Source: Escherichia phage vB_EcoM_005
Sequence record: MK295203
Reading direction: 5' to 3' (one strand)
DNA: 64,000 bases
Shown here in pieces: positions 680-37,738 of this stretch (within the stretch, counting starts at the first letter, position 1; each line of letters begins with the position of its first letter). The notes under the pieces are model-generated. The model did not search any database. It was not told the DNA's origin and was given only the letters and a program-made list of their open reading frames with translations. The translations under genes and the position numbers were made by a program.

Positions 680-1339
680 ATGAATTATTTAATTTACAAA
701 ATAACCAATCTCATTAATAACAAGATTTATGTTGGAGCCCATGCCACTACAGATGTTAACGATTCTTATATGGGTTCTGGGGTTAACATAGTAAAATCCA
801 TAAAGAAGCACGGTTTAGAGAATTTTAAAAAGGAAATCCTTTTCAATTTCGAAACACCTGAAGAGATGTATGCTAAGGAAGCCGAACTAGTTGATGAGGC
901 TTTTGTCATGAGAACAGATACTTATAATGCTGCCTTAGGCGGTAAGGGTAATCCTGTTATAGTAGCTTTACAGGAACCCGGGTATCGTGAGATGTTATCC
1001 GAAAAGACCAAGGCCGGTATGACCAAGGAAGTAAGGGCCAAAATGTCTAAATCGAAAACAGGTTCTAAAGAATCCAAAGAGCACCGAGAAAACAAATCTA
1101 TAGCTAATAAAAAGTTTTACGAGAATAGGGATTCTCATCTTAAAGGTAGGAAACTATCAGAAGAACATAAAGCCAAAATTAGAAAGAATTCTAATAAAGG
1201 TAAGAAATTCGTATTTGTGGATATTTCTATTAAAGGTCATGAATTTAGCCATTACGATTACGCTGCCGAATTCTTTAACGTATCCGCAAAAACTATAAGA
1301 AATTGGATTAATGAACGCGATGATTGTTTTAAGCTATAG
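680..1339 (+). CDS. GIY-YIG homing endonuclease (seg-like)
   Basis: YLIYKITNLINNKIYVGAH and YMGSG motifs near N-terminus, basic repeats and HTH-like C-terminus; sits between genes 23 and 24 where T4 has segD. Confidence 0.8.
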   Translation: MNYLIYKITNLINNKIYVGAHATTDVNDSYMGSGVNIVKSIKKHGLENFKKEILFNFETPEEMYAKEAELVDEAFVMRTDTYNAALGGKGNPVIVALQEPGYREMLSEKTKAGMTKEVRAKMSKSKTGSKESKEHRENKSIANKKFYENRDSHLKGRKLSEEHKAKIRKNSNKGKKFVFVDISIKGHEFSHYDYAAEFFNVSAKTIRNWINERDDCFKL

Positions 1340-1398: not shown

Positions 1399-2825
1399 TT
1401 AAATTCCCTTAACGTAGACACGTCTAAAGTAACCATTCAGACCGAGGCTGTTAACGATGTCAGGCATACCGCTCTGAATACGTTTGGTAGGAGCCTGTGC
1501 AGACGGGTCAGCGAACGGGTTGATACTGTGAAGTAATCGGAACGTGCATACTGGTCGATGTAAACGCGATATTTACCACCAAGAACACCGGCAAATACTG
1601 CTTTGGTTGTGTCAACGTTGAAACCCTGACCCAGACCTTGAGCTGCATAACTTACAGAAGTATCAACTGCAGCCAGTACGTTAACTACGTTACGGGAAGC
1701 GATGATGAAGTTACCAGCACCACGACCGGTCTGACGAGCGATTTCGGCTGCTTCTTTATCAATCTGGAACAGAAGGGCTTTAAAGCTCTCACCGGCCCAA
1801 CGAGCACCACGGATATCAATCGGGTCCTGGAAGTCAAACACACCAGCTTTAGCGCCAACGGTGTTGGTCATACCAGATTTACCAACCTGTGCAGAGTAGT
1901 TAATCCAATCGATAACTTCACGGTTGATTTCGAGCATAATTTCGGTAGCAAGGATACCGGACAGTTCAGCATCTGCATCCATACCGTGTACTGCACGAAG
2001 GTCCTGTGCCAGTTCGATAGAATAGCTTGCTTTCAGCTGACGGGATTTAGCTTCGATAACTTGTTTGTCGATGCGGAAGCCCATTTCGTTCCACGGGTTA
2101 TCCTGGGAACCGTTAAAGCCTTCCTGAAGTTCAGCGATAGAAGTAGCCATACCTTCAGCCAATTCAGCCAACTTACCAGCTTCAATCAAAGCGGTAACAG
2201 CAGCATCCAGTTTAGCGGCATCAGTAGCAGCAGCATCAACGGTTACAGCTTCAACAGCCTGGAAGTGTGCAGCACCGGTAGCTTCGAAGAAGTGAGAATA
2301 AATTTTACCAACTTCCAGAACTTTGCTTGCAGCCAGTGCTTCGAAAGATTCAGCAGCACCCTGACCAGAGAACATAGCGTTCGGAGCATACATCGGGTGG
2401 AAAGCTTCTTTAGCGCCAGCAGCGATAGGGTCTTTACCATAAACTGCGCGCAGGGCAAATACCTGGCCGGTAGGGTTATTCAGAGGCTGAACACCACAAA
2501 TATCAAAAGCAATCAGATGAGGAATAGCACGACGAACCATACCCATTACTGCAGGCCCAATCTGAGTTACAGCACCAGAAGTCTGGCCAGCTGCGATATT
2601 GGTAGCATCATAACCGTGGTCACCGCCAATTTCAGCTTCGGTCAGGAAAGAACCAAATGCTTCAGAGATTTTTTCATCACGGTATTCCGGAGCAGTCAGG
2701 ATGTCTTGTTCCTGGTTTTCGAAAATTTTAGCGATGATAGCTTGTTTAGAAGCACCTACGATTTCAGGAAGAGCTTCGTTTTCCAGCAGAGCGGACCATT
2801 TTTGAACTAATGCATTCTTTTTCAT
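1399..2825 (-). CDS. 23: major capsid protein gp23 (reading frame broken near 3' end)
   Basis: MKKNALVQKW...SKQAIIAKIFENQ... close to T4 gp23; frame changes after DYFTV near 1545; last 41 codons (INPFA...FRRVYVKGI) are in another frame ending 1399; ORF track shows 1437..2825. Confidence 0.9.
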
Positions 2826-2846: not shown

Positions 2847-3563
2847 TTAAGAAATTCGTGATGCTGCGATTGCAGACAGGTCCGCGAAGGACAGGGTAGG
2901 CTTAGCGCCTTTTTCTTCAACTGCTTCTGAAATGTAATTCAGTGCCGCAGCATCGTCTACATTTTTATTTATAGCGGCTTCGGTGATTGGGTTTTCAACG
3001 TCAGTTTCAGTCAGGTCTTTAGTTGCTTCCGTAACAGCAACTTCACGCTGTACGTAATTAATATACGCGTCGCGCTTACCAACTTCTTCGAACAGACGAG
3101 CGGTTTCATCTTTCTGCTCTTGGAGTTCTTCTTCCATTTCAGCAACAACATCTACTGCTTCTTCTGGAACAACCACATTGTGTTCAACAAACAGTTCTTT
3201 CATACCCATCAACATGGATTCGAACAGTTCGGCTTTAATACCTTTATCAACAGCCAGCTGGTTTTCAGCCATCCATTCTTTAGCAACGTGGTCAAGGAAA
3301 CGACCGGCAGCTTCTTGGATTTTCTTATCGGCTTTTTCTTCAGCTTCTTCTTTATTTTTCTCTACTTCTTCTTCCGCTTTTTCAGCGATTTTAGCGATGT
3401 GAGATTCAGCCAGTTTCACGGCGTGTTGCTTGACGGTAGCTTCGAATACAGTGCCGAAAGTTTCTTTTGCTTCCGGAGAAATATTAACTGATTCGAAAAT
3501 ACTATCAAGAGCAACGGAAGCATCAATATTCTGTGCTTCGGCGATCAGTTGTTCTTTAAGCAT
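2847..3563 (-). CDS. 22: prohead scaffold protein gp22
   Basis: 238-aa acidic coiled-coil protein MLKEQLIAEAQ...; position between 21 and 23. Confidence 0.85.
   Translation of the reverse strand: MLKEQLIAEAQNIDASVALDSIFESVNISPEAKETFGTVFEATVKQHAVKLAESHIAKIAEKAEEEVEKNKEEAEEKADKKIQEAAGRFLDHVAKEWMAENQLAVDKGIKAELFESMLMGMKELFVEHNVVVPEEAVDVVAEMEEELQEQKDETARLFEEVGKRDAYINYVQREVAVTEATKDLTETDVENPITEAAINKNVDDAAALNYISEAVEEKGAKPTLSFADLSAIAASRIS
2966..2973 (-). promoter_or_regulatory. possible late promoter TATAAATA
   Basis: Forward TATTTATA = minus-strand TATAAATA, about 140 nt upstream of gene 23 start. Confidence 0.3.
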
Positions 3564-3590
3564 TTTGTAGTCCTGTTGTTTAGATAATAA

Positions 3591-3598
3591 TATTTATA
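3591..3598 (-). promoter_or_regulatory. late promoter TATAAATA for gene 22
   Basis: Minus-strand TATAAATA 28 nt upstream of gene 22 ATG, overlapping gene 21 stop. Confidence 0.5.
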
Positions 3599-4229
3599 AC
3601 GCTTTTTTCATGGCCTCTGCGAGAGCCATAAAGGCGTCATCGGCACTGGTATCGGTTTCTACCGTTTGTGATTCTGTAATTTGCTTTGGAGTTACATAAG
3701 CATCAGGAGCAGATGGTCCCCATACTGCATCAACACCGACGGTTAATTTATAACCTTCGTTTACACGCTTATATCCTTTGTTGGTTTCGGTTAAAGAACC
3801 AAGACCACGAGAACTAACACCAGGAACCCAACCAGCACGGATATTTGCAGCTAGTTTATCACCTGGGCCATGGTCACCTTCGATGATACGTGCACGTCCA
3901 TAAACATCATTACCTTTCCACCACATATCTTCAATAATAATAGCGGCTTGCATAGGGTCAACGTTAGCACGAGGTGGGTGGTTTAATTCTCCTAAAGCTT
4001 GTTTAGTAGCAACCTGTTCCGCCATATAATCGGCAACGGCTTTTTCCAAAATAGGTTTTGGGTAAAGGCGTTTATTACGGTTAACTACCTCTGCTTGCAT
4101 GAAAATGCCTTCTATATAAAGGCCGGGAGCAAGCCCAGAATTTTTTCCATCATGAGATTCCAACATAGGAACCCCATCGATAATTTCACCTGGTTGTCCC
4201 CAATGTTCGATGAGCAATTCAGGTTTCAT
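3594..4229 (-). CDS. 21: prohead protease gp21
   Basis: 211 aa; ...GEIIDGVPMLESHDGK...GLYIEGIFMQAEVVNRNKRLYP... near-identical to T4 gp21 as recalled. Confidence 0.9.
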   Translation of the reverse strand: MKPELLIEHWGQPGEIIDGVPMLESHDGKNSGLAPGLYIEGIFMQAEVVNRNKRLYPKPILEKAVADYMAEQVATKQALGELNHPPRANVDPMQAAIIIEDMWWKGNDVYGRARIIEGDHGPGDKLAANIRAGWVPGVSSRGLGSLTETNKGYKRVNEGYKLTVGVDAVWGPSAPDAYVTPKQITESQTVETDTSADDAFMALAEAMKKAL

Positions 4230-4657
4230 TAGTTAAGTCCAAAAGCTTTACGTTTAGAACGGGCTTTCTTACGCTTACGTTCAGCACGCACTTGAGTAGA
4301 TGGATTAGCACGTTTGGTTTTAGATGCTTTACGAGCAATCTGACGGCGTTTTGCTTTAGATAAACCTGTCGTTTGGAACGCATTACGTTGACGGGTTTTA
4401 ATATCTTTAGTACGAGTAAGCTCACCTTTAGAGGAAACGTGTTTAACGATAAATTCGTTAAGAGCCATTGATTCATTTAAAGAACCAAGAGCGATAGCAC
4501 ATTCGATATCGCCTTCAGCAATCATGTTCTCTACAAGATTATTTATATCGCTTTTCTCGAGCGCTTCAGAAAGAGCAGCAAAACGTCCCTGTGCTTCTGG
4601 AATTTTAGCCTCTACGCTTTCTAGAGTTAATTCGTAATCATCAGGGATAAGGAACAT
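4229..4657 (-). CDS. 68: prohead core protein gp68
   Basis: 142 aa with very basic C-terminus; ATGA overlap with gene 21; T4 order 67-68-21. Confidence 0.8.
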
Positions 4658-6557: not shown

Positions 6558-7139
6558 TCATTCATTTTCATGTTTGTGATAACGTGTTATAGCCGAACGA
6601 GTTGATTCAACACCACAGATAGGGCAAATCATCCTTGGCTGATTAATCTTTTTGCCTTTAGCCGGATGTTCTTTACCAAACATCGGATTACCTTCACCAG
6701 ACATAGCTTTGGCTTGGTCTGGTCGCTTACGTCCTTTTAGAGCTTTAGAATGTTCAGGCCTCTTTTTACCTAACCTACAATCTCTTTGTAGCTGTTTGGC
6801 ATGTTCACTCATTGGAATCCCTTTACGAGACATTCCAAAGAACCCGTCAGGCTGAGCTAATGACATATTTATATAGTTTTTAGATTTAACTACATTATAC
6901 TTTATTTGAAGCTCTTTCTCAGCTATACGAGCTTCTTTATCGGTTTCAAATAAAGATAAAATTCTGGTTTTGAAAAGGTGCGGATTTTCTTTACGTTCTA
7001 GATTCCAAATCTTTTTATATGCTTGGGATAATACAGAACCATTATATCCTTCTTTGAGAATCCTTTCAACGTATGTTGAGCCAATATAACGACGGGGTAG
7101 TTTAGACCCCGTGTATATGGTTAAGTAAGTACAATACAT
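6558..7139 (-). CDS. GIY-YIG homing endonuclease with C-terminal zinc finger
   Basis: TIYTGSKLPRRYIGSTY N-terminal motifs, repeated basic H-x-AK segments, C-terminal CPICG...H; free-standing between genes 20 and 19. Confidence 0.7.
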   Translation of the reverse strand: MYCTYLTIYTGSKLPRRYIGSTYVERILKEGYNGSVLSQAYKKIWNLERKENPHLFKTRILSLFETDKEARIAEKELQIKYNVVKSKNYINMSLAQPDGFFGMSRKGIPMSEHAKQLQRDCRLGKKRPEHSKALKGRKRPDQAKAMSGEGNPMFGKEHPAKGKKINQPRMICPICGVESTRSAITRYHKHENE

Positions 7140-7701: not shown

Positions 7702-8385
7702 TTAGTGTTTCCTATCATATTCTTCAATTAAATGGAATAGCATATCTAAATCTATACTATTTTTAGAATCTTTACTTCGATTCTTTTCCCAAGGAATCAT
7801 TTCTAGATTGCAAATGTGTCCTATTATTTCGGGAGGGACGCCATTTTCAAATCCATATTTGATAGATACCCTATGGTCTAATTGATAAGCTCCTTTAACA
7901 CCACATATCCCGCTTAGATGTCTATTTGGTAGATTATCAACTTCTTCTTTAAAAGTCTTATTAGTAAAAGACCTCACTGAATAATAATATTTATTACGTT
8001 CAGATTTGTTAGGATTCCATCTTCCGTTTTTAGGTCCTGAACAAGCTTCAATCTTTATACCTTTTTTAGACTTAGAAATTTTAGGCCCTTTGGTTTTACG
8101 GATTTTTATGCCTTCATCAGAATTCCAATATTCTTTTCTTGTTTCTGAATAGACTTCCCAACGATGCTCTTTACAGAACTTAGAATTGGTTTCATTAAGT
8201 CGCCCTTTTGTTACAGTATAATAAATGCCACATTTATCACATTTACACGTAACAGCCATTTTTCCAGGACAGTCTTCTAATTTTATTAAATGGGAGCTTC
8301 CACTTTTAACTTGATATCCAAGATTTTTAAAAGCAGAAACATTGCGATTCGTTATAGGTATTTCAAATAGAGTATTAGTAATCAT
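7702..8385 (-). CDS. HNH homing endonuclease (mob-like)
   Basis: C-terminal YQLDHRVSIKYGFENG...HICNLEMIPWEKNRSKD HNH motif, cysteine-rich N-terminus; inserted between genes 19 and 18. Confidence 0.7.
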   Translation of the reverse strand: MITNTLFEIPITNRNVSAFKNLGYQVKSGSSHLIKLEDCPGKMAVTCKCDKCGIYYTVTKGRLNETNSKFCKEHRWEVYSETRKEYWNSDEGIKIRKTKGPKISKSKKGIKIEACSGPKNGRWNPNKSERNKYYYSVRSFTNKTFKEEVDNLPNRHLSGICGVKGAYQLDHRVSIKYGFENGVPPEIIGHICNLEMIPWEKNRSKDSKNSIDLDMLFHLIEEYDRKH

Positions 8386-12745: not shown

Positions 12746-13608
12746 GGGTTTCTCCTTGGTGCTGGAGGCGCTGGCTCGACAGGCACTGGAATATCTTGTG
12801 AATATGTTTGAACGGAACTTCCATCCCATTCTGTTTGTTCTACACCTCTCGGAACCACTTCGCTATCAACCGATTCGAAATTACCTTCAGGAGCGAGTTC
12901 CTTTGAGTTAGCAAAGAAATCAAGATAAATGGTTTTAATTTCGCCTTCCATTTCTTTAACTGGAGGATATAACCACCCGTTAACCTCAAACATCATGGAC
13001 CATTCTAAACGACGACGAGAAGTGGTATCGCCTTCTAATTGTTCGTCCATTGCAATAGACTGGAACACAATACGAATATCACGGTCAAATTTAATCTCGT
13101 TTGTATAGAGTTCAGTGATTGTTGTATTAAAGTGAGGTTGGAAATAAGGCATAATCTGTTCCACAATTTGGAACATATCATCTTGGGTTCTAGTGTAAAT
13201 ACCCAGTTCGAAAATCATTTTAACCGGAGTAGGAGAATATTGGCTAACCCGTTTACGAGGGTCACCATTCTCAAATTGAATTTGTGTTCTGTTCTGAAGA
13301 GCTGTTTTGTATTGTGAGTTATAAAGCATATCAACCATTTGAAGGTTCATACGTGGAAGAACTGTTTCCACTTTAGCCTTTTGTTCAGCTCGTTCTTTAG
13401 GAGACGTATTGGGATTTGGAATATTCTGTACTGCCGTCCATTTGCCCAAATTTGCCATAAATCTTTCTTTAGAAGCATACGTGATAGGAACCTTAATAAA
13501 TTTAAGCCCTGTATCTTCTCTTTGACGTGCTACTTGAACATGGGAAAATAAATCACCCATCAAAACAATATAGCGACGTAGCGAACTATTATAAAAGTGA
13601 CCGAACAT
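12742..13608 (-). CDS. 15: tail sheath stabilizer/terminator protein gp15
   Basis: [13 protein letters not shown]...VPITYASKE... matches T4 gp15 N-terminus as recalled; 288 aa. Confidence 0.85.
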
Positions 13609-14195
13609 TACTCACCTCTCATTTTACAATTATCATTATGCCAACGATTTATAAGATGGTATCCTATCATCTTGTGGCAATGTGGACACTCTACTTTTCT
13701 CTTTGGTACACCTGTTTGGGCTTGTCCAAAGGATACGGTATGTTCTGCTGAAAGCTTTTTGCCTTTGTGGGTTTCACTGGCTCTCTTTTTAGCATACTCT
13801 CCGTGATGTTTACCAAAAAATGGATTCAATTCACCTATACGAGTTTTACCCCAGGCTGATTTAACCCTCTTCATTTCTATACGGGCTTCTTCGTATTTTA
13901 TTTTTAATTCTTCTTCGGATAAATTTAAATTTCTACGTTCAGAACTACTAAACATAATCCAAAAGGCTAAAATCATTTTAGGGTCTTTTGTTTTTGCTAA
14001 GATTGCATGCGCCTCTAGATGGTCTAAAACATCTATAGAAACTATATTTTCCGGCGTGTTTTCGTATTCTGGAAATAAAGACCTAGGGAGAATATGATGT
14101 TTTTCGGTGTATTCTGTTTTAGGTGGCTTGGAGACCACCGCCAGATATTCATCTGTCAAATCCCCAAGCCATAATCCTACTTTTTCTTCTATCAT
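13608..14195 (-). CDS. HNH homing endonuclease
   Basis: HHILPRSLFPEYENTPENIVSIDVLDHLEAH HNH motif and C-terminal CPHCH...C zinc finger; inserted between genes 15 and 14. Confidence 0.7.
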   Translation of the reverse strand: MIEEKVGLWLGDLTDEYLAVVSKPPKTEYTEKHHILPRSLFPEYENTPENIVSIDVLDHLEAHAILAKTKDPKMILAFWIMFSSSERRNLNLSEEELKIKYEEARIEMKRVKSAWGKTRIGELNPFFGKHHGEYAKKRASETHKGKKLSAEHTVSFGQAQTGVPKRKVECPHCHKMIGYHLINRWHNDNCKMRGE

Positions 14196-14204: not shown

Positions 14205-14908
14205 TTAATCATCTAAAAAAGCATCATCAAATGCTGTAGGAGGAGCATCTTCTCCTCGTCCATTAATTACAACATAAGGATGTACGAATTCAGCCGCTTC
14301 GGCATTAATCTCATTGACCTCTTCGTATTGAATGTCGGAGATATCAGCCAACCCGTCGATATTCTTAACAGGCATTAAATCAAGCTCACTGAATTCAGGA
14401 ATATTAATACCTTCATTTCTCTGTAATTCAGGACGAAGTTCTTCACCATTGTAAATGAACTTGGTAGCGGTAATTCGACGCTGGACGTTAGCACCTACTT
14501 GATAGAATGGGTCGTAAGGTTGTACCCAGTTAATTTCGAATAGGCTTATTATCCATTGGGAAATAAATCAAGTCGCCTGAAACAGGTTCAGTGCCATTGC
14601 ATTGATGTTTAAAAAGGTTAGGGTTAATTGTGATTGTTACTTCATCATTAACCATCATACCGAACTTACTGAAAGCCTATTCGGTCATTGGCATTTAACA
14701 TATTCACGTGGTATATAATAAAGCTCAATACCACGCATTTGAATAGACTCAGCAACTAAAGCATCAGCCAATGTTTGGGTATTCTCATGCTTGTAATGGT
14801 CGCCATTGGGTCATTGACAAAGGGATTGAGAATTTCGGCTTCGTTCGTATTAGCGTAACCTGTATTATTTTCTAGTTTGGCGAAAAGACTAGAATCAAAT
14901 GTCGACAT
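14205..14908 (-). CDS. 14: neck protein gp14 (multiple frameshifts; not translatable as one ORF)
   Basis: gp14-like segments lie in three frames: [23 protein letters not shown]..., [64 protein letters not shown]...; span of 704 nt is not a multiple of 3. Confidence 0.7.
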
Positions 14909-15521
14909 AACTCCACTCCTTCCATTTAGGTTTATCATTCTTTATTCTATTAATAACTGCGCTTTTGACTATACCAAAATACTCGGCGCATTCTTTACCT
15001 GTCGAGAATACCATTTCTCCGACTCTAACTGCTCTGGCCGCAGGATTTTTACTACCGGTAAAATCTGGGTGTTTCACACGCGTCCACATTAATGCGGTAG
15101 ATTCTTTTCTACGCTTTAGCCCTTCTTCAGTCCATTCTCTTGATTTTGCCGCCTCTGACATTCTTTTTCTTGATTCTATAGAACGGGTTTTACCTATATT
15201 AGGGTTATCTTTAGGATTGTAATAAGAAGGACCACCTTGTCCTCCTTTTACCAAATTAACACACTGAGCAAAATCTTCTTTAAGAATATCGACTAAAAGT
15301 TCTTCGGCTTCCTTTAATAATTCCGGATTACCGAAATCTTTCGACCATAATACCTGTTTTATACAGTTTCGTCCATATTTTTTCTTAGCATTCGAAATAT
15401 ACGTTCCTGAGCCAACGTATGAATCCAGCTTTGGATTAGATTTATCCGAATGTCTTTTACCGCCATAAATTTTTAATCCGTCCGACGTTTCAAACTCAGT
15501 CACGTATAATCTATAAAACAT
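14895..15521 (-). CDS. GIY-YIG homing endonuclease inserted between genes 13 and 14
   Basis: [10 protein letters not shown]...YVGSG motifs, C-terminal HTH; 3' end overlaps gene 14 start; ORF track fuses it to an upstream gene-14 fragment (14895..15668). Confidence 0.75.
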
Positions 15522-15568
15522 AATTATCCAATTAAAATAGGTGTTGGTGGGTCGAGTAAATCTAATTC
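15519..15568. repeat. 50-bp direct repeat, copy 1 (copy of gene 13 3' end)
   Basis: Identical 50-mer CATAATTATCCAATTAAAATAGGTGTTGGTGGGTCGAGTAAATCTAATTC also at 15666-15715. Confidence 0.85.
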
Positions 15569-15572
15569 GAAA

Positions 15573-15668
15573 GTTGACGAAAGGGTTCATTATTTCAGTT
15601 TCGTTCGTGTTAGCATAGCCAGTATTATCTTCTAGCTTAGCGAATAAACTCGAATCGAAAGTAGCCAT
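15573..15668 (-). other. duplicated, diverged 5' fragment of gene 14 (32 codons)
   Basis: [32 protein letters not shown], about 78% nt identical to the real gene 14 start at 14908; reads in frame into the HEG. Confidence 0.6.
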
Positions 15669-15715
15669 AATTATCCAATTAAAATAGGTGTTGGTGGGTC
15701 GAGTAAATCTAATTC
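15666..15715. repeat. 50-bp direct repeat, copy 2 (3' end of gene 13)
   Basis: Identical to 15519-15568; encodes gp13 C-terminus ...[14 protein letters not shown]. Confidence 0.85.
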
Positions 15716-16839
15716 CTCGCGAAGTCGTTCTTTTTCTAAACGAGCTTCTTCAATCAATCGAATAGCCATCTACAGTGGTTCCACCTGCAAGTTGCATGCC
15801 TTGGTGTTTGGCTAAAATATTACCATTGACCTCTTTAACCAGTGCCGTAGCATAATCTTTAACCCAACGGTTATTATATGCACCAGTCTTGAAGACCAAG
15901 GTCCTCACCTACACGCATACCAGAAATACGACGTGATGGATTATCCCAAACAGCTCCAGGGCTCCATTCATTTTCGTCACACCCACCAGAGGCATATCCA
16001 TATCCTGCAGTATTTCCTACCATAGAATCAACCCCATTAAAAGAGCGAGTATAAACTTCAATTACAATAAAATCACCTTTAACAAAGTTACCCATTACCT
16101 TCAACTGTTCAGTGGCATCGTTATACCAATAATCAGGCAACAAAATATTACCATTGACTTCTTTAACCAATGCCGTCGCATAATCTTTGACCCAACGGTT
16201 ATTATATGAACCATCTTGCAAACCAAGGTCTTCACCTGCCCTCATACCTGAAATACGACGAGCCGGGTTATCCCAAATAGCTCCGGGGCTCCATTCATTT
16301 TCGTCACACCCACCAGAGGCATATCCATATCCTGCAGTATTTCCTACCATAGAATCAACCCCATTAAAAGTGGAACCAAAAGGTCTTGCATCATAGAACG
16401 ATATTGCATTAATTGTGTAAAATAACCAAGGTCGGCACCGAAGGCATTAGGCCCAAAGCTGTTACAAGAAGGTTCCAAGACCACCATTAATACCGGCCAA
16501 GCCTAATACAAAATCAGTAAACCATGGATAAGTCGCTTGGCCATCCATAGATGTTAAAGAACCCACGTTGGTTCTCAAAATTTGTGTTACCGCAAATATA
16601 TTACGGCCTTTAAGGTCAAATACACCGTTACGGAATTTTTCTTCGTCATCATGGCCTATATAAAAAGCCTGATAACCTTTGTTATAGCCGTTATAATGAT
16701 ACTCACCGTAGAGCTCCAGTGCGCGCTGGATGCAATCGTATACTTGGTCTGTAGTTACTTCAATATTTGTAATCGGTGCACCCAGGCGGCGCAGGATTGC
16801 GTCCTTGAGTTGCTTAGGGTTATATGATTCACTTGCCAT
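15671..16839 (-). CDS. 13: neck protein gp13 (frameshifts and internal tandem duplication)
   Basis: [23 protein letters not shown]... matches T4 gp13; frame breaks near 16465 and 15760; 1169-nt span is not a multiple of 3. Confidence 0.75.
15814..16043. repeat. tandem duplication inside gene 13, copy A (about 230 bp)
   Basis: About 90% identical to 16142-16370; both encode [43 protein letters not shown]. Confidence 0.8.
16142..16370. repeat. tandem duplication inside gene 13, copy B
   Basis: See copy A; separated from it by a 98-bp unique segment encoding [19 protein letters not shown]... Confidence 0.8.
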
Positions 16840-24445: not shown

Positions 24446-24503
24446 TAATTTTTACCTGAGGGGCAAAGGTCACAGCACTTTGGTCAAACAAAATGCGCAT
24501 AGA

Positions 24504-27170
24504 CTAATCGGCAGGAATATCAAACGGTTCTCCTGCTTTAGGTCCAACGTTGTACATTGGAGCACCTGTACGAGGGTCTCGTTCTATATTACCATCAAAA
24601 CCTATTACAGCAACTCTATCATACCATTCAGATGGCAAACCTGAGTCCCATTTATAGTTCTTAAGGATATTAATAATAGTTTCTGTATGTTTTAGCGTTA
24701 AACCAACGTTAACAAACATAGAAAGCAAAGTTATACCTACAAAGCCGAAACCTACTGGATGAACAAATCTCAAAACATCTTTGCGATAACGAGAGGTAGG
24801 GAGATTAGACTTAATAGTCATCACATAATAAGAACGGTTACGGTTGATATAGTCGATATTGTTACTCAAAAGCTCTTTACCACGTACACCCTGAACAATC
24901 ATACCCTTGAACGAAGTACGTTCAGATTTAATTTCCTGTCCGACTATAAAACGACCTAAAAGGTTATGAATGGTTAAACGCCATTGCAGTTTACCATCTT
25001 TGTAATTTCGTTCTATATAAGTAACATTACTACGACCCGTAGGAGTATAAATCGTTTGGCCTACGATATCTTCACTGATATTGTCGGATTCTACGATGAT
25101 ATCATATTCGATAGAGTTCTTGGACTCGATATCAATTTCGACATCTTCGTTGTAAAGCAATTTAAACAGGAACTTATAAGAAGCTTCGGTACCTTTTGTA
25201 GACCAAAAATCGCTTTGGCGTGCCTGGAAAAAACGAACAACTTCATCGCGTTTTTCCTTTGACAAATAGATATTACGCTTATAGATTTCCGACCACAAAT
25301 ATTCCCATGAATCTTCTTCACGCGGATATTGGTTACGAATAAGATTCAACAAATTATTATAGTGCGTACCTGAGCCATCACTAATAAATTGGAGATAGTA
25401 TTCACAGAATTTTTCAAAGTTGGTATCTTGAAGCAAATAACTATCTGGAATCATTTTAACCAGTAAAGGTTGGAGGTCTGGGTCCTGCTCACCAACTTCC
25501 TCTTTAGGCTTCCATGGGATTTCATGTTCTTGGTTTTGCAATTCTGCCGTAAACATAATTTCTTTAGGCTTCCAAATAACACGGACTTCATCACGCACAC
25601 GATAGTCAAATTCAAAATATCCAACCAATTCACCCGTAGATTTGTGAATCATCATTCCGGAAGAATATTTCTTAAAGCCGTTAAATTCTATATTAGGAGA
25701 CGTGACTTTACAAAAACCTTTATTCCAAATCTCGTGAACAATACGTTCAGGTGAAGAACCACTGTTCAGGTCGATAATTTTCTGATATAAAGCATCATTA
25801 TAAACAACCATCGCATGGTCGCCGGTAGTAATCCATGAACGGGTTCCATCACGACGGGACCAACTAAAGAATGGTTCGGCATAATAAGCCATACGTCCAG
25901 GTTTAAATTCTTTGAAATCAGATTTAGAGTTAGACCTAAAACTCATCATCAAATAATGTTTATCATGAATCCATTGTTCATCTTTAACATATTTAACGGC
26001 TGAAGTGACAATTTCAGGATATTCCAAAGGAAGTTCAGAATCAACCTCTACTTCATATCTAAAGTTGCTCGAACTGAAAAATAATTCCTCTCCATCGGTA
26101 GACATGCTGGTATATCCATGCTCTATACGACGACGTTCTTCTTCAGTGTTTCCAAATACACGAGTCCATGTATCGGCTGAAGTGTCTAACCAATAAACAC
26201 CTTTAGATTCGGAATCAACCACATTGGATTCGACTGTAGGGTCCATTTTTTCTTCTTTAACTTCACCTGTAATTAAAGCAAATGTATGGCCTTGGATAGA
26301 ATCTAATTTATAACAAACAGCTTTAGGGTTCCCTGTGATAGTTGAATATCCGCTTTCAAATATCTTCTCTCCATAAGTCGGAGAACTAGGGTCGGTGTCT
26401 ATAGGGGCTTCAGATGTTTTTGCTTTATAAACTCTGTCTCTACCAGCAACATAAATGAATTCATCAGATGCGCACATGGCCTCGGCAATAGTAGAAATAG
26501 GTAAAGGAAGCTTTGCATATGAACCAAATATTTCGATTTCAAATGGAAGGTCGATATCGCTACCTATTTTAGCAAAAGTTACATCCTGGGAACTAAATCT
26601 AACGTCATCAGCAGACCAACGAATATCACTTGATTTACGTCCGTAAAATATTTGGTCATAACCTAGAACATAAGTGGTCGTGTCGGTTTGGTAATGTACC
26701 GTACGTGAAACAGGGTTACCTACTCGGTCATTAAACAAACGGATATAATGCCAGTTCTGCCCTTTATCATTAGAAACCTTAGCGGTGCTTTGGAATCTTT
26801 CTAAAAGGTAAAGTACACCGCCAAGTTCCATTAAAATAGAACGTTTAGGGTCTTTACAAACTGCTTGGATGCTTCCTTGGATTTCATGGAAACGGTCTGC
26901 TTTTAAAACATAATTTGATATAGATGACAAATGCGAATATGCAGGGGTAAAGTTAAAATCTTCACTCATCAAAGAAGCCATAATGGCGTCAGTATTAAAG
27001 TTCACATAATTCTGATTATTTTTTGTGAATTTTTCTTCAATAAATTTATTAGACAAAGTGAATTCGCGCATATGCTCAAATGTATATGCGTTGGTAGAGA
27101 AAGTTTCAAATTCTTCAGTGTAAACCCATTCAGACTGCTCAAACCCCTGGGCAGCTACCGCAACTCTCAT
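24504..27170 (-). CDS. 7: baseplate wedge protein gp7 (start missing, C-terminus frameshifted)
   Basis: Longest ATG-initiated ORF; gp7 homology continues upstream to about 27284 (...LGYTPNNEWF...) with no start codon; C-terminal ...FAPQVKIND lies in another frame at 24443-24500. Confidence 0.85.
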   Translation of the reverse strand: MRVAVAAQGFEQSEWVYTEEFETFSTNAYTFEHMREFTLSNKFIEEKFTKNNQNYVNFNTDAIMASLMSEDFNFTPAYSHLSSISNYVLKADRFHEIQGSIQAVCKDPKRSILMELGGVLYLLERFQSTAKVSNDKGQNWHYIRLFNDRVGNPVSRTVHYQTDTTTYVLGYDQIFYGRKSSDIRWSADDVRFSSQDVTFAKIGSDIDLPFEIEIFGSYAKLPLPISTIAEAMCASDEFIYVAGRDRVYKAKTSEAPIDTDPSSPTYGEKIFESGYSTITGNPKAVCYKLDSIQGHTFALITGEVKEEKMDPTVESNVVDSESKGVYWLDTSADTWTRVFGNTEEERRRIEHGYTSMSTDGEELFFSSSNFRYEVEVDSELPLEYPEIVTSAVKYVKDEQWIHDKHYLMMSFRSNSKSDFKEFKPGRMAYYAEPFFSWSRRDGTRSWITTGDHAMVVYNDALYQKIIDLNSGSSPERIVHEIWNKGFCKVTSPNIEFNGFKKYSSGMMIHKSTGELVGYFEFDYRVRDEVRVIWKPKEIMFTAELQNQEHEIPWKPKEEVGEQDPDLQPLLVKMIPDSYLLQDTNFEKFCEYYLQFISDGSGTHYNNLLNLIRNQYPREEDSWEYLWSEIYKRNIYLSKEKRDEVVRFFQARQSDFWSTKGTEASYKFLFKLLYNEDVEIDIESKNSIEYDIIVESDNISEDIVGQTIYTPTGRSNVTYIERNYKDGKLQWRLTIHNLLGRFIVGQEIKSERTSFKGMIVQGVRGKELLSNNIDYINRNRSYYVMTIKSNLPTSRYRKDVLRFVHPVGFGFVGITLLSMFVNVGLTLKHTETIINILKNYKWDSGLPSEWYDRVAVIGFDGNIERDPRTGAPMYNVGPKAGEPFDIPAD

Positions 27171-29980: not shown

Positions 29981-31376
29981 CAATAGTATATTGACCGGAT
30001 GCAATTGAACTCATAGTCGACATAGTTTCAGACCAATTGCCTGCAACAGTCATATCAACGTTTCCATTTACGGACCATTTAACGTTTCCATTTACTGTAT
30101 AGTCATGGTTGCCTTCAACTAATGTTTTTGCATCGCCTTTAACAGTTATATCAGCATTACCCTCGACAAGAATTGTTACGTTTCCTTTAACAATAAGGGT
30201 CCCATCACCTTCTACGGTTTTAGTTTCATTACCACGAATATGATATCCGTCTGCTACTGTCTTGGAAGTTTTGCGACCATCAGGAGCAACTTCTTCATAA
30301 CTACCTGTAGGATGGATTAAACGATAACGTTCTTGCCCTGGAGTGTTATCAAATTCTTGGATATGCCCGCCTTCAGTCTGCATGGTTTGGACATATGGGT
30401 ATTCACCTTTATAACTAGAATCAGGCTCTTTAAAAAGAATCCTTGTATCTTCTGGAGTCCATGGGTCGGCAGGGTCTGAATTTTTAGGGGCTGCAAAGGT
30501 TTGAATCATTCTATACGAACGCCCTTTAAATGACCTTTCTTTAGGGGCCATAATACCGTATGATTCCATGTTACCTGTAAGGATAATCATTGATACCCTT
30601 GATGCACGACCTTTAGTTTGGTTAAACCACACAGAATCACGAGCGGCATCAAATGCTTTCTTATAATCTCCGGCTAACATTGCAGCGAGCATGGTTCTAA
30701 ATTTAGCCAGTCCACCCAATCCCATTTGGAAAGCCATGTTTTCAAGAGCCATTTGTCTTGAACGGTTTTCTTTATTGTAAACTGGCCCTACAACACTATG
30801 CCGACCTATATCGCTTTGGACTTTTTTAAGGTCTTCTTGGAATAATTTAGAAGCCTCGTCCATTGATATTGCACCTGGGTTACCTTTAACTTCTCGTCCT
30901 ACCTGATTAGATAATATTTTGTTTATTCGGTTCATATCTCTAATAGGTTGCGGTGTGATAAGGTGGCCTATACCTATAGTAGGATAACCTTCGGTGTCCC
31001 AATAGTTAATACCCACATCAGTGTTTGCATCTTGTATTACGTTAGAAGTGGCATCATATCCAACTTCACCGCCTCGGTTTAGTGCTGCAGCATCATTACC
31101 TAAATAAAGTGGATATTGACCTGTTGGGTCGCTAAAACCTTCATTAGGATTAGCCTTTTGTCTTGAAGCGGAACCATATGTACCGAGGACAAGCCCGTTT
31201 AATTTCCACTTATCAAGAAAGTGCCCATAAGTACGAAGGCCTTTTACAGGACCTTGGACCTTTTCGTAAGGATGCAAGCCCCAGACACGAACTCGAACGC
31301 GTCCTTGTTGGAGTGGGTCCATACGGTCTTCAACCACCCCTACGAACCAACTGACATTATCAGACATGTTAATCAT
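29955..31376 (-). CDS. 5: baseplate hub / tail-associated lysozyme gp5
   Basis: N-terminal ...WFVGVVEDRMDPLQQGRVRVRV, central T4-lysozyme-like domain (GINYWDTEGYPTIGIGHLI), C-terminal VxGNxxxxV beta-helix repeats. Confidence 0.9.
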   Translation of the reverse strand: MINMSDNVSWFVGVVEDRMDPLQQGRVRVRVWGLHPYEKVQGPVKGLRTYGHFLDKWKLNGLVLGTYGSASRQKANPNEGFSDPTGQYPLYLGNDAAALNRGGEVGYDATSNVIQDANTDVGINYWDTEGYPTIGIGHLITPQPIRDMNRINKILSNQVGREVKGNPGAISMDEASKLFQEDLKKVQSDIGRHSVVGPVYNKENRSRQMALENMAFQMGLGGLAKFRTMLAAMLAGDYKKAFDAARDSVWFNQTKGRASRVSMIILTGNMESYGIMAPKERSFKGRSYRMIQTFAAPKNSDPADPWTPEDTRILFKEPDSSYKGEYPYVQTMQTEGGHIQEFDNTPGQERYRLIHPTGSYEEVAPDGRKTSKTVADGYHIRGNETKTVEGDGTLIVKGNVTILVEGNADITVKGDAKTLVEGNHDYTVNGNVKWSVNGNVDMTVAGNWSETMSTMSSIASGQYTIDGSRIDIG

Positions 31377-31975
31377 AGCGCTTTTTCCATTTCTCTAATT
31401 AAAGCGGAAACAAAGGACTCGATGTCATTAGGGTCTATAATCTTTATTTCGCGCTTATATTCATTTTTACGAATGGCATCCTCGTAAATATCTACTGCAG
31501 CCAAAGGCCCTTCATATTGAGGATAACGTTTTTCGGTATCGCCCTTATCATACCAAGTATAAGGATTTTCCGGGGTATTTACTAGATTCCAGAATTTCTC
31601 ACCCTTTTCATTGACATGATAAAGGACTTGGTTTCCGCCTGCAGTAGCATAACGTTGAATAGCCGCTTGATACGCCGATTCTTGGCCTGTAATCCATCCA
31701 TAATACGGGTCATAGATATTGTTACACATTAAAAGGACCCAATATAATTGCACGTTACCATAAAGTTGATTGGCCAATTCTTCTGGACGAGGGGCCCCAC
31801 TGATGTAATATGTTTTAAGTGTATAATTTTTAGCCACTTTGTTAAAATATTCTTTATAATTTCTAAATATATCAGTCATCGGAACGCTCAGTACATCGGC
31901 ATTGGTTAATGAGCCGGAATCTGGCTTGACTGTTTTTGATTCGTAATTTATAGGGTCGAAAAATGAGAAGAGCAT
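31373..31975 (-). CDS. 53: baseplate wedge protein gp53
   Basis: MLFSFFDPINYESKTV...PMTDIFRNYKEYF...NPYTWYDKGD... matches T4 gp53; 200 aa. Confidence 0.85.
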   Translation of the reverse strand: MLFSFFDPINYESKTVKPDSGSLTNADVLSVPMTDIFRNYKEYFNKVAKNYTLKTYYISGAPRPEELANQLYGNVQLYWVLLMCNNIYDPYYGWITGQESAYQAAIQRYATAGGNQVLYHVNEKGEKFWNLVNTPENPYTWYDKGDTEKRYPQYEGPLAAVDIYEDAIRKNEYKREIKIIDPNDIESFVSALIREMEKAL

Positions 31976-31987
31976 AGTGCCTCCGAG

Positions 31988-31995
31988 TATAAATA
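31988..31995 (+). promoter_or_regulatory. late promoter TATAAATA for gene 4
   Basis: TATAAATA 27 nt upstream of gene 4 ATG, in divergent 53/4 intergenic region. Confidence 0.5.
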
Positions 31996-32002
31996 ATATT
32001 AA

Positions 32003-32010
32003 TATTTATA
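32003..32010 (-). promoter_or_regulatory. late promoter TATAAATA for gene 53
   Basis: Minus-strand TATAAATA 28 nt upstream of gene 53 ATG. Confidence 0.5.
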
Positions 32011-32021
32011 AGGAGGCGACT

Positions 32022-32471
32022 ATGGCTTACTCAGGGAAATTTAAACCTACAAACTTACAAAAATATAAAGGTGACTGGAAGAAAATCCAATATCGTTCCT
32101 CTTGGGAAGCATGGTTTATGCGTTGGCTTGACAACCATCCTAATGTAGTCCAGTGGAATTCAGAAGAGGTAGTCATTCCTTACTTTTGCAATGCCGAAGG
32201 AAAGAAAAGACGATATTTTATGGACTTCTGGGTTAAATTTGATACAGGTCAACAATTCTTTTTTGAAGTCAAACCTTTTAAAGAAACCCATGCTCCTGCT
32301 GTTCCTGCTAAAATGACTACGGCTGCTAAAAAGAGATATATCAACGAACACTATACTTGGTCTGTTAATACCGATAAGTGGAAAGCAGCTAAATCTACAG
32401 CAGATAAAATGGGTATCACGTTTAGATTGATTACCGAACATTCACTGAAAAAATTAGGATGGAAAGGATGA
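32022..32471 (+). CDS. 4: head completion protein gp4
   Basis: [19 protein letters not shown]...[11 protein letters not shown]...[13 protein letters not shown]... after AGGAGG RBS; matches T4 gp4. Confidence 0.8.
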
Positions 32472-33295
32472 GTATATTTTCCTACATCAATGAGGCTACT
32501 GAAACCACAAAGGGTTCCAAGCCTACTCGTTCAGAACAACAATGGATAGCATTAGGTGTCCAGTATGCCGAAGCTAAAGCAAAGGGCGTCTCGGCTAAGA
32601 AATTCGCTGAAGATAAAGGCATTAAGTATTCTAGCTTTACATCTGCGATGTCTCGATACTCGAGTCGAATTAAAACTGCTGTACAGGTTGAAAAACTTCA
32701 GAAGAAACCTGGCAATAAATTAACCAAAGCCGAACGTCAATTAATTTTGGTGAATAGTTTTAGAAAGAGTATTCGTGATAAGATTGCTAACGAAGGTGCT
32801 GCTGTAAACAATAAATCAGCTAAATGGTTTACAGAAACATTAAAGAAAGGAATTCGCGGACACCAGGTATCTAAACCATCTCCTGGTAAGCTTTATGCTT
32901 ATATCTATGATGCCAAACACAAGGATACCCTACCATACTGGGACAAATATCCTTTAATCATTTATCTTGGGTTAGGTAAGCATAATTTAATGTACGGGCT
33001 GAACTTACACTATATCCCACCTAAAGCACGACAGCAATTTCTGGAAGAATTGCTGAAGCAATACGCGAGTACGCCTACCATTACGAACTCGACTAAATTA
33101 AAAATCGATTGGAGCAAGGTAAAAGGATTCGCCGGAGCCGATGTGATGATTAAGGCTTATATCCCTGGAAATATCAAGGGACCTTTAGTAGAGATAAAAC
33201 CGTCTGATTGGGCTAATGTAATAGGATTACCACTTCAGCAATTTGTATCTAAAGGTAAGCGTTACTCAGCTCAGAAAGTATGGAAGAATTCATAA
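32468..33295 (+). CDS. 2: DNA end protector protein gp2
   Basis: ATGA overlap with gene 4 stop; 275 aa as T4 gp2; position 4-2-3. Confidence 0.75.
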
Positions 33296-33377
33296 TCTAT
33301 TATCCCGGCCAGTTATTGAATGGAACAGACCTAGGACCATTATACACTGTCTGGGACTTAAGCAATATAGGAACCCT

Positions 33378-33968
33378 ATGAACGGTTTATTTAACCAAAC
33401 TAACACTACTAACTTTATCTTAGAGGTTAGTGACGCAGGAATGACGCAGGCATTCAAATTGAACGTACAAGATGTAACACTACCGGGTATCCATATTCCG
33501 GTCTCAGACGTCCCAGGATCGACCCAGGGCATACATCGTGCTAAGCTGCCAGGTTCTACGGTAGAATTCGATCCATTGATTGTGAACTTTCTTGTAGACC
33601 GTGAATTGAAATCATGGCTTGACGTTTATAAGTGGATGTTGTCATTAAACAACTACGTAACACATGATTCAGAAGCCTGGCATCCTAAAGGTCAACCTGA
33701 AGCTATCACCCTCCACATCCTTGATAACAACAAACAAAAAATCGTAATGAGCATTCATTACTACGGTGGTTGGCCATCTGACCTCTCGGAAATCCAGTAC
33801 TCTTATAAAGAGGATTCTGACCCAGCGATAATCGCTACAGCAACATTCAACTTCAAATCGTTTGCTGTAGAAATAGATGGTACAATAGTTACAGGTCGTC
33901 CACAAATTGATTCGTATGCCGAACAACGTGTGGCTCGTATGTCTATGCATCCATCTATGAGAAAATAA
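33378..33968 (+). CDS. 3: tail completion and sheath stabilizer protein gp3
   Basis: Internal ATG of ORF 33243..33968 chosen (MNGLFNQTN...); position between genes 2 and 1. Confidence 0.7.
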   Translation: MNGLFNQTNTTNFILEVSDAGMTQAFKLNVQDVTLPGIHIPVSDVPGSTQGIHRAKLPGSTVEFDPLIVNFLVDRELKSWLDVYKWMLSLNNYVTHDSEAWHPKGQPEAITLHILDNNKQKIVMSIHYYGGWPSDLSEIQYSYKEDSDPAIIATATFNFKSFAVEIDGTIVTGRPQIDSYAEQRVARMSMHPSMRK

Positions 33969-34721
33969 TGAAACTAATATCAATTGTAGGAATCAAACGT
34001 AGCGGTAAGGATACCGTTGCTAACTATGTAATCGAAAATATGGATTCGGTAAAATTTCAGCTCGCAGGTCCTATTAAAAAGTATCTGGCCGAAGCCTATG
34101 AATACATCTCTGATGACCCTGTATTCGACCGTAGTTATATGCCTAAACTCGATTTTAACTGTTTTGAAGGTATCGGTTACGACCGTGAAGAAATCCTTCC
34201 TTTAAAACCATATGATGTTATTGATATCTTTGAAAATGCTATTGTCAAATTGAATAATATCCTTCCTATTCCAGGAATGGACGTTCGTACCGCATATCAT
34301 TATGGTCTTACCCCAGTCCAGTATCTGTCTGAAGAAACAAAAGACCGACTGTTTGAAGTAATAAATAAAAATAACAATTGGTCAGTACGTCGTCTCATGC
34401 AGACCCTTGGGACTGATATTATTGTTAACCAATTTGATAAGATGTATTGGGTTAAGTTGTTCGCTTTAGACTATTTTGATAAAATATACTCTGATGCGAA
34501 ATACTATGTCGTACCTGATGTTCGTCAAACACACGAAATTGATTCGCTCAGAGCGATGGGTGCTACGATTATTCATGTAGTTCGCGCTGAAACCGGTCAA
34601 GTACAAGACTCGCACATCACTGAAGCGGGTCTACCAATTTTACCTGGTGACGTTGTTGTTGAAAATAACGGCACTCTTTCTGAACTATACACCACTATTG
34701 ATAAATTATTAGGAAATAAAA

Positions 34722-34729
<8 letters not shown>
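33968..34729 (+). CDS. 1: deoxynucleoside monophosphate kinase gp1
   Basis: P-loop GIKRSGKDT; ...WSVRRLMQTLGTDIIVNQFDKMYWVKLFALDY... near-identical to T4 gp1 as recalled. Confidence 0.9.
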
Positions 34730-35422
<693 letters not shown>

Positions 35423-35428
35423 AAAGTT

Positions 35429-35468
35429 GTTTACAAGGTCTATAGGCATGATACTATAGACCTATCAA
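35429..35468 (+). promoter_or_regulatory. early promoter cassette (PeSL-like)
   Basis: GTTTAC, spacer AAGGTCTATAGGCA, TGATACTATAGACCTATCAA; spacer AGGTCTATAG pairs with CTATAGACCT. Confidence 0.6.
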
Positions 35469-35494
35469 AACAAACTAACCAAACGGAAATCAAA

Positions 35495-35719
35495 ATGAAA
35501 ACTTATCAAGAATTTATTACCGAAGCTAAAAGACATGAAGATGAACTGCCAATTGTTACAAAAACCTTTGATGGCACACTGGCTGATTTTAAAAAAGTCC
35601 CTAGTGATAAGCTTGCTAAATTGACTGGCTCTATCAATGAAAAAGGTGGCAAGGTCACGTTTTCTGCTGGCGGCATAGCCAATCTTAAAAAACTTTTGAA
35701 AGCCGCTGGCGCTGAATAA
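35495..35719 (+). CDS. internal protein with capsid-targeting leader (ipI position)
   Basis: Starts MKTYQEFITEA; 74 aa; located after 57B where T4 has ipI. Confidence 0.7.
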   Translation: MKTYQEFITEAKRHEDELPIVTKTFDGTLADFKKVPSDKLAKLTGSINEKGGKVTFSAGGIANLKKLLKAAGAE

Positions 35720-35720
35720 A

Positions 35721-35993
35721 ATGAAATCATACCAAGAATTTATCACTGAATCTATTCTTAATGAAGAAGTAAAAATTAACAAATCTGTTAAGACCGTGAT
35801 TGATAATATAAATCATCTCTATAACATTGATTTGACTAATCACGTGACTTTAGGCAATAAGCGAAACTTTTTTGTTTTTGATACTTCAGAACTTGACCAG
35901 AATCAAATTAACAATATTGAACGTTTTGCTAATGAAAAAGGACTGCGTCACGAAACGGCTGGTTATAAAAAGTATGCAATTTATCTAAAATAA
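35721..35993 (+). CDS. internal-protein-like (leader MKSYQEFITES)
   Basis: Same leader family; 90 aa. Confidence 0.6.
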   Translation: MKSYQEFITESILNEEVKINKSVKTVIDNINHLYNIDLTNHVTLGNKRNFFVFDTSELDQNQINNIERFANEKGLRHETAGYKKYAIYLK

Positions 35994-35995
35994 TT

Positions 35996-36038
35996 GTTTA
36001 CAACGGGCTCTAGTGGTGATACTATAGCCCTATCAAAA
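35996..36038 (+). promoter_or_regulatory. early promoter cassette (PeSL-like)
   Basis: GTTTAC...TGATACTATAGCCCTATCAAAACAA followed by GGAGAATAAAATG leader. Confidence 0.55.
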
Positions 36039-36061
36039 CAAATGAGTGATTGGAGAATAAA

Positions 36062-36247
36062 ATGAAACGTTGCGAATTAATTAGAAATGTTACTGCACTG
36101 GCCGCCGTTACTGCTTTTGGCTTTAGTATGTTTGCAGGATTCATGCTCGATATGCTTTCAACTTCCGAGAATATAATCTCTTTAGTAGTGGCATTTTTAA
36201 TTGGTTCAATCTCTTTTGTTATGGATAAAATCTCTAAAGGTGAGTAA
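36062..36247 (+). CDS. small hydrophobic (membrane) protein
   Basis: ATG after GGAG leader; two hydrophobic stretches; track start 36050 is TTG. Confidence 0.5.
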   Translation: MKRCELIRNVTALAAVTAFGFSMFAGFMLDMLSTSENIISLVVAFLIGSISFVMDKISKGE

Positions 36248-36248
36248 A

Positions 36249-36629
36249 ATGTATAAAGTGTATGCGGACTACCAAGCTAATCCATCCGAAAAACCAGATT
36301 GTCAAATTGGATGGGCGCATGACACCCTGCTTGAAGCGGTAGATGAAGCTCAAAAATTAGGGTATAGTTATGTAGATATTGTTCAACCAAATGGAACAGT
36401 TATTACTCTTGAAGAATTCAAGAATATCAAAACAAACTTTTTGCTCTTTGCTGGTGATAACTATTATCCTCGTGGCGGTTATGCTGACTTAATTGCAAAA
36501 GCGGCGTCTGAAGATGAACTACGCGATATCATTAAAGAAAACGAGAATAAGCCTCAATATGGGTCTAATCGTTTTGACTGGTGGCAAATTGTTAATGCCA
36601 ATACCCACACAATTGTAGACGAGGGTTAA
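36249..36629 (+). CDS. hypothetical protein (126 aa)
   Basis: ATG 36249 right after previous stop; no recognisable motif. Confidence 0.55.
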   Translation: MYKVYADYQANPSEKPDCQIGWAHDTLLEAVDEAQKLGYSYVDIVQPNGTVITLEEFKNIKTNFLLFAGDNYYPRGGYADLIAKAASEDELRDIIKENENKPQYGSNRFDWWQIVNANTHTIVDEG

Positions 36630-36914
36630 ATGCTATACGTTAAGGTTACTAATCCAGAGAATGGCTATAACTCCGATCAGGTTGCAGCTGAGTTGTTGAT
36701 TCGCAATTATGGCAAAGATGCTGTTCTTGATGTTCAACAGGTTAATATAGGACGTAGTTCAAGCGATGTTAAGCTCAAAGTTAACAGCCATCGTTATAAT
36801 TCTGTTAACTTTACTTTTTATACCGCAACTGAAAACGGATTGGTCGAATACGACATCTTTAAAAATCCTTTGAAGATTGCTTCTATTAAACTTGATTACA
36901 TTAATATGCTTTAA
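36630..36914 (+). CDS. hypothetical protein (94 aa)
   Basis: TAAATG coupling with previous ORF. Confidence 0.55.
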   Translation: MLYVKVTNPENGYNSDQVAAELLIRNYGKDAVLDVQQVNIGRSSSDVKLKVNSHRYNSVNFTFYTATENGLVEYDIFKNPLKIASIKLDYINML

Positions 36915-37043
36915 GAATTATGTGATATTATTACTCTATCATTAATACCCTCTATTACCAAAGGTTCTTCCCTCAAAGAACCTTTCATAATAGACAAGGT
37001 CTATTAATCAAACTTACTTTACTTAATTTTATTTGAGGTGTTT

Positions 37044-37310
37044 ATGTTAGTATTAAAATTAGCTTTTTATGACCCAGAAACCAAGACAACAACTACCAAA
37101 CGTTGTTCTATTTCATATGACTGCCAATTTGGCGAAGTTGAGACTGACGGCGAGCCCTTTATGGCAATTGCCGATAGCACATTCGCTAAACCAAAAATAA
37201 TTCCACTAGTTAACGCTGCGGCTTATCTGGTTGCTCCTGAAGAAATGACTTATCATACAATTCAGCACATGGCTAAAGACGATAATGCTCCTGCTGGATT
37301 TGTAATTTAA
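37044..37310 (+). CDS. hypothetical protein (88 aa)
   Basis: ATG after GAGGTG; preceded by hairpin AAGGTTCTT-TCCCTC-AAAGAACCTT and a decayed promoter cassette. Confidence 0.5.
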   Translation: MLVLKLAFYDPETKTTTTKRCSISYDCQFGEVETDGEPFMAIADSTFAKPKIIPLVNAAAYLVAPEEMTYHTIQHMAKDDNAPAGFVI

Positions 37311-37315
37311 ATTAA

Positions 37316-37389: not shown

Positions 37390-37397
37390 TTAACTAC

Positions 37398-37707: not shown

Positions 37708-37738
37708 AAGGCCCTTCCGAAAGGTTGGGCCTTTTTTG
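37708..37738 (+). terminator. rho-independent terminator
   Basis: AGGCCCTTCCGAAAGGTTGGGCCTTTTTT; identical copy at 38851-38880. Confidence 0.7.

Follow-up and report, generated by a model that had tools for sequence, protein, structure and literature searches.

The break in major capsid gene 23 of Escherichia phage vB_EcoM_005 is very probably one of many artefacts in the sequence text

Gene 23 of Escherichia phage vB_EcoM_005, which encodes the major capsid protein gp23, is frameshifted in the sequence record MK295203 and lacks conserved coding sequence, and this break is very probably an artefact of the sequence text, left by a process working on about 100 nt that struck the otherwise normal genome of a Dhakavirus at more than 30 sites. 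We analysed a stretch of 64,000 nt from this record (hereafter, the window), in which the break in gene 23 is one case of a window-wide artefact and not a real feature of the phage; the living phage almost certainly carries a normal gp23 of 519 aa. Read at face value, the window describes a phage without functional capsid, sheath, baseplate or neck, and this reading is false; the underlying genome is that of an ordinary Dhakavirus with a few mobile endonuclease genes. The main value of the result is as a quality warning on every other broken gene in the window, where genes that appear truncated, frameshifted, shortened or fused, or that have lost starts or stops, should be checked first against the approximately 33 scars described here.

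The window contains the block of late genes from a T4-like coliphage in the genus Dhakavirus (the JS98/IME08/Bp7 group), whose best public relatives are 96–98% identical to it. The minus-strand order is gp24-(SegD)-gp23-gp22-gp21-68-67-gp20, and the same arrangement, gp20-67-68-21-22-23-(segD)-24, is shared with the Dhakavirus and T4 relatives. Gene 23 starts at 2825 on the minus strand and its frame is kept across codons 1–433 (1527–2825), the in-frame part ending in ...YIDQYARSDYFT and carrying 3–4 aa differences from the gp23 of fDHCT2 and IME540 over 433 residues. The complete open reading frame, from 2825 to 1437 (462 aa), reads ...YIDQYARSDYFTV, then about 28–29 unrelated residues, and stops at 1437–1439; the ORF translation of this out-of-frame read-through (1437–1526, minus strand), which is made by the scar, is VSTRSLTRLHRLLPNVFRAVCLTSLTASV followed by a stop. 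The true C-terminus of gp23, residues 479–519 and the stop, lies on the minus strand in the −1 frame from 1524 to 1399, encodes INPFADPSAQAPTKRIQSGMPDIVNSLGLNGYFRRVYVKGI and is 100% identical in protein to the relatives. The original prediction, made from the letters alone, was hence right that the gp23 frame runs into nonsense and stops at 1437, and that the conserved C-terminus sits in another frame ending at 1399. It had also put the loss at about 43 codons; a conserved segment is indeed gone, but the exact figure is 44 and 1/3 codons, and the V that it read after DYFT is created by the junction, the relatives carrying I.

When the window is aligned with phages fDHCT2 and 04086 there is a single gap of 133 nt at gene 23. 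A 140-nt query spanning the junction splits into two pieces, each 100% identical to the relatives and there separated by an additional 133 nt, and one base of the query stays unaligned, across the 12 best records listed (including WG01, MX01, IME281, AnYang and IME540). The lesion is a replacement of 134 nt present in relatives by one filler base at window position 1527 (T on the plus strand, A on the coding strand), which shortens the gene by a net 133 nt and shifts the frame. It removes the last base of the T433 codon, codons I434–I477 and the first base of G478, and the missing peptide (residues 434–478) is IGYKGANEMDAGIYYAPYVALTPLRGSDPKNFQPVMGFKTRYGIG. This segment is absent elsewhere in the window by pattern search, blastn and tblastn. 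Alignment to T4-like gp23, which had been proposed as a check along with the original prediction, shows that the relatives all keep the segment and that its 44 residues are identical at 43 positions between Dhakavirus and T4 gp23 (PDB 6uzc), the T4 protein having a solved structure (6uzc, 5vf3). The lost peptide ranks among the most conserved parts of the protein.

The interrupted ORF still matches the Pfam profile Gp23 (PF07068) with an E-value of 8.2e-96 and 322 bits, against a profile cut-off of 24.4 bits, which places it with the T4-type gp23 proteins (PF07068, HK97 fold). It covers profile positions 1–308 of 376, and there is no single uninterrupted ORF of approximately 519–522 aa extending over the whole profile, including the C-terminal core. 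By descent the locus is a gp23 gene, but as written it is not a functional member of the T4-type gp23 proteins. With a frameshift and about 44 conserved codons missing, the gene as written cannot yield a functional major capsid protein, in line with the earlier statement that a phage with this gene could not build capsids.

Intact versions of the gene are found throughout the relatives. The gp23 of the listed relatives is 519–522 aa in one frame, whereas that of the window is without residues 434–478 and frameshifted; over codons 1–433 and 479–519 the window protein is 99–100% identical to the intact gp23 of fDHCT2, WG01, MX01, IME540 and IME08, and this identity is maintained on either side of the scar. 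An identical gp17 occurs in five further genomes or contigs, some of the contigs being metagenomic, and in all of them the neighbouring genes are without exception full-length, among them gp23 (519 aa), gp22 (271–272 aa), gp18 (660 aa), gp10, gp11 and gp9. Exact-protein matches to the truncated gp23, SegD, wac and gp15 are not on record, such matches being confined to gp17, in other intact phages. Searches of IMG/VR, JGI metagenomes and GTDB genomes did not find the gp23 junction; by BLAST of the region, none of the INPHARED phages had a match spanning the junction, and RefSeq E. coli gave no match of any kind. A 41-mer, a 27-mer and a 32-mer specific to the window had no match in public data either. 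In the record of phage 04086 (OR842557.1, locus 3091–4635) gp23 is annotated from an internal start only (1110 nt), and a spurious opposite-strand ORF is placed over the 5' part of the gene; this short gp23 is an annotation problem of that record and not of the window.

The hole in gene 23 belongs to a large set. At the DNA level, with IME540, ABTNLsp5, JS10 and Bp7 as references and each loss seen against two independent references, the losses specific to the window number at least 33, within the stretch of 1.5–63.7 kb. Their net size is exactly 99–100 nt in 21 cases and 102, 102, 106, 123, 126, 133, 147, 158, 166 and 173 nt in ten others; only three or four lie outside the range of 99–173 nt, these being losses of 85 and 97 nt within the rearranged gp13/gp14 stretch, an uncertain loss of 87 nt at about 55050, and one of 299 nt at 63045, which may be a natural ORF loss. 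A control comparison of IME540 with ABTNLsp5 over the same 25 kb contains no such indel, and only three whole-ORF differences of 557–684 nt. The lesion is recurrent, fixed in size and absent from both relatives and controls, as a systematic artefact would be.

In clean cases, the window has a single base where the references have 100. Read on the plus strand, this filler base is G (n = 9) or T (n = 4, gp23 counted) and never A or C, whatever the orientation of the gene, a restriction with a chance probability of about 1e-4. Filler bases were read at 9414, 20591, 21018, 23985, 27472, 31005, 43521, 45143, 54139, 60542, 61884, 62896 and 1527. The first base of the removed 100-mer equals its last base in six of nine cases. 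Filler rules based on the highest allele, or on a bit-flag applied to the first or last base, do not fit the reference bases. GC content is unremarkable in the deleted segments (0.41 vs 0.40) and no motif is common to them, which rules out targeting by composition or motif. Dropped FASTA lines or 100-nt bins are likewise ruled out, since distances from hole to hole are not multiples of 100, and random overlap of fixed 100-nt spans is insufficient alone to produce the longer holes, approximately 3 being expected by our own estimate against some 9–10 observed. No strain switches were seen at the junctions, the identity profiles to seven relatives being continuous across them.

Damage to coding sequences is correspondingly broad. 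By tblastn of IME540 and ABTNLsp5 proteins against the window, damage is found in 15 of the 24 morphogenesis genes of the gp23–gp53 block, many of them essential, with in-frame losses of 33–107 aa in gp22, gp18, gp12 (two), gp9, gp8, gp6 and gp5 (three), and frameshifts, lost ends or rearrangements in gp23, gp14, gp13, gp11, gp10 and gp7; the unscarred morphogenesis genes are 97–100% identical to relatives in protein. The scaffold gene gp22 has lost a net 99 nt at 3004–3005 (33 aa, in frame), and in the tail sheath gene gp18 148 nt are replaced by T at 9414 (net −147, 49 aa). The neck protein gene gp14 is frameshifted at 14675–14694, where approximately 105 nt give way to 20 nt of unrelated filler (net −85). 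The rearranged stretch of gp13 (15569–16370) combines a 97-nt loss at 16370/16371, a 230-nt piece and, by comparison with MX01, the replacement of approximately 96 nt by a 570-nt fragment of a second, endonuclease-less allele, the fragment comprising the 3' part of gp13 and the first 97 nt of gp14. The short tail fibre gene gp12 carries two scars (19203 and 19466, each net −99), gp11 is frameshifted where 107 nt become G at 20591 (net −106), and the C-terminus of gp10 is scarred at 21018 (100 nt to G). Further losses of a net 99 nt occur in gp9 (23298/9) and gp8 (23985). A compound scar at the C-terminus of gp7 (24461–24504, net −126) includes 13 nt of unrelated filler (about 24492–24504), while a loss of a net 173 nt at 27276/7 deletes the start of gp7 and the stop of gp6; gp6 is also scarred at 27472 (100 nt to T), and the hub/lysozyme gene gp5 is scarred at about 30240 (net −123), 31005 (−99) and 31230/1 (−99). 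Early genes on the plus strand have scars at 43521 (−102), 45143 (−99) and 47048/9 (−99, at the 3' end of lysozyme gene e). Beyond these, net losses of 99 to 102 nt lie at 51928, 54139, 55752, 55870, 56610, 59013, 60542, 61884, 62454 and 63664, and larger ones at 62620 (−158) and 62896 (−166). The original prediction had presented the lesion as notable for gene 23 in particular, a view that this survey does not support: holes of this type number at least 33 in the window, fall in 15 of 24 morphogenesis genes and in many early genes, and therefore speak of the sequence file, not of the phage or its capsid gene.

The holes are clustered along the window. Scar density is approximately one per kb in 14.6–31.2 kb and in 51.9–63.7 kb, and there are zero scars in the 12.3 kb from 31231 to 43520, which contain genes 4, 2, 3, 1 and 57A/B, the tRNA region and small ORFs.

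Between the scars, the genes are 97–100% identical in protein to those of relatives. Nucleotide differences from IME540 in five genes without holes fall at codon position 3 in 115 of 133 cases, not over all codon positions with scattered small indels or stops as in a pseudogene, and the 41 codons past the gp23 scar are 100% conserved in protein. The position-3 bias and the conserved post-scar codons together show that selection acted on intact genes, the underlying genome being a normal lineage under selection.

This bears on the reading in which the record is faithful to a real but non-viable genome, whether it came from defective particles, from a laboratory construct with extensive deletions or from a remnant undergoing decay. 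Such a reading, which we regard as highly unlikely, can point to a lesion that is unambiguous in the text and to several losses that are in frame (99, 102, 123, 126 and 147 nt), but it must accept that 15 of 24 morphogenesis genes in the gp23–gp53 block were damaged at once, by scars without microhomology or a common motif. Strong purifying selection and protein identities of 97–100% to live phages leave no time for decay, and T4-type phages are lytic and without prophage remnants. Furthermore, we know of no biological process that would excise exactly 100 nt and put a single G or T in their place on 20 or more occasions. A novel activity excising approximately 100 nt (a ruler-type nuclease, or a defence or recombination system), which would have generated a multiply deleted, non-viable genome that was then sequenced faithfully, is in our judgement extremely improbable.

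Two readings confined to gene 23 retain next to no probability. One is that the gene is recoded, by a programmed −1 frameshift or a hop like that of T4 gene 60, to give a shorter but functional capsid protein. The 41 C-terminal codons, intact and in the −1 frame directly past the break, are what such a reading would lead one to expect, and T4 gene 60 is similar in having two parts of a protein in different frames on the same strand. However, recoding skips or re-reads extra nucleotides and cannot restore 44 residues that are missing from the DNA; in T4 gene 60, ribosomes bypass 50 additional nucleotides and still make a complete protein, whereas gp23 in the window is without conserved coding sequence and without recoding signals. 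There is no slippery heptamer (X XXY YYZ) at the junction TAC TTC ACA GTA TCA, and a frameshift there would still give a product without the 44 residues; nor is there the non-coding gap, with take-off and landing codons and a stop, of a gene 60-type bypass, nothing having been inserted and 134 nt of coding sequence being missing. In relatives whose flanks are 100% identical, the segment is read in a single frame, and the same lesion type recurs at more than 30 other places. The other reading, to which we likewise give a negligible chance, is that a SegD-like GIY-YIG homing endonuclease cut gene 23 near its 3' end and that faulty repair left the 133-nt deletion. Homing endonucleases cut near their own insertion site, and the endonuclease gene lies 60 nt downstream of gene 23; but IME08 holds the same gene (91% aa identity) in the same place beside an intact gp23 of 522 aa, and scars of the same anatomy (n nt to one G or T) lie far from any endonuclease gene, which together rule this out. 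The gp23 deletion is absent from IME08 and from IME341.

Under the preferred explanation, that of an artefact, a process with a fixed length constant of approximately 100 nt would have taken out stretches of 100 nt or more at over 30 sites, usually leaving one base for each, and one such removal in the 3' part of gene 23 would have taken the 134 nt, with the loss of residues 434–478 and the shift in frame. Identical lengths, a hard lower bound, strand-asymmetric filler, the involvement of both essential and non-essential genes, and purifying selection together form the signature of an algorithm, and we infer that the process was one with a constant of about 100, acting in assembly or in later handling. 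The losses resemble fixed-length misassembly or processing artefacts in their single modal size (net 99) and hard lower bound, in positions that are independent of gene content, in the second-allele fragment at one site, and in that the junctions examined are not shared by any relative; they differ from known artefacts in that, to our knowledge, no documented tool substitutes a single G or T for 100 nt. The uneven spread of the holes, with none from 31.2 to 43.5 kb, counts against the artefact explanation.

Two forms of this process carry roughly equal weight. An error in k-mer or overlap handling, with k or overlap of approximately 99–100, during assembly of a multi-strain sample would account for the hard minimum of 99, the '99+d' tail and the second-allele fragment in gp13/gp14. 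Alternatively, if spans of 100 nt or more were removed or masked once assembly was complete, this would account for the strand asymmetry of the G/T filler and for junctions at which no strain switch occurs; the collapse of N runs into a single character would produce just such a pattern. Neither explains everything: a filler of G and T only is hard to obtain from a strand-symmetric assembler, which counts against the first, while the 92%-identical second copy of gp13 and the short unrelated fillers (14675–14694 and about 24492–24504) are hard to reconcile with simple excision of text.

The gp13/gp14 region offers a separate view of the sample. The same 230-nt piece of gp13 is present twice (15814–16043 and 16141–16370), the copies being 92% identical to each other and, relative to IME540, 98.7% identical in one case and about 94% in the other, which suggests that two strains' sequence is present in one contig; likewise, the '99+d' tail with its hard minimum and the second allele of gp13/gp14 suggest a mixed-strain sample. 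In a 257-aa ORF at 14895–15668 (minus strand), the 33 N-terminal aa of gp14 are joined to an endonuclease of the Seg type, for which there are NUMOD3 and I-TevI DNA-binding-like matches, and an exact 50-nt repeat lies close by (15519–15568 = 15666–15715). In MX01 the genes gp13 and gp14 are cleanly separated by the endonuclease (ORF161). Insertion of the 570-nt fragment of the second, endonuclease-less allele accounts for both the fusion and the repeat, and the fusion is therefore probably artefactual.

Other accessory genes are found in the window. The SegD-like GIY-YIG homing endonuclease gene (680–1339, plus strand, 219 aa) separates gp24 from gp23 and runs on the strand opposite to theirs; its product is 91% identical to SegD of IME08, and the gene, which amounts to an insertion of 658 nt when compared with IME540, is absent from most relatives and looks intact and natural. 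Between gp15 and gp14, an HNH-like ORF of 195 aa (HHILPRS...LDHLEAH; 13608–14195, minus strand) has no Pfam match at E ≤ 0.001, is 99.5% identical to an ORF of ABTNLsp5 and absent from IME540, and probably encodes a mobile endonuclease. Compared with some relatives, the window has whole-ORF insertions at 6561–7139, 7705–8385, 43809–44473 and 47460–48497; these are present in IME540 but absent from ABTNLsp5, or absent from JS10, and are typical of mobile or accessory ORFs in T4-like genomes.
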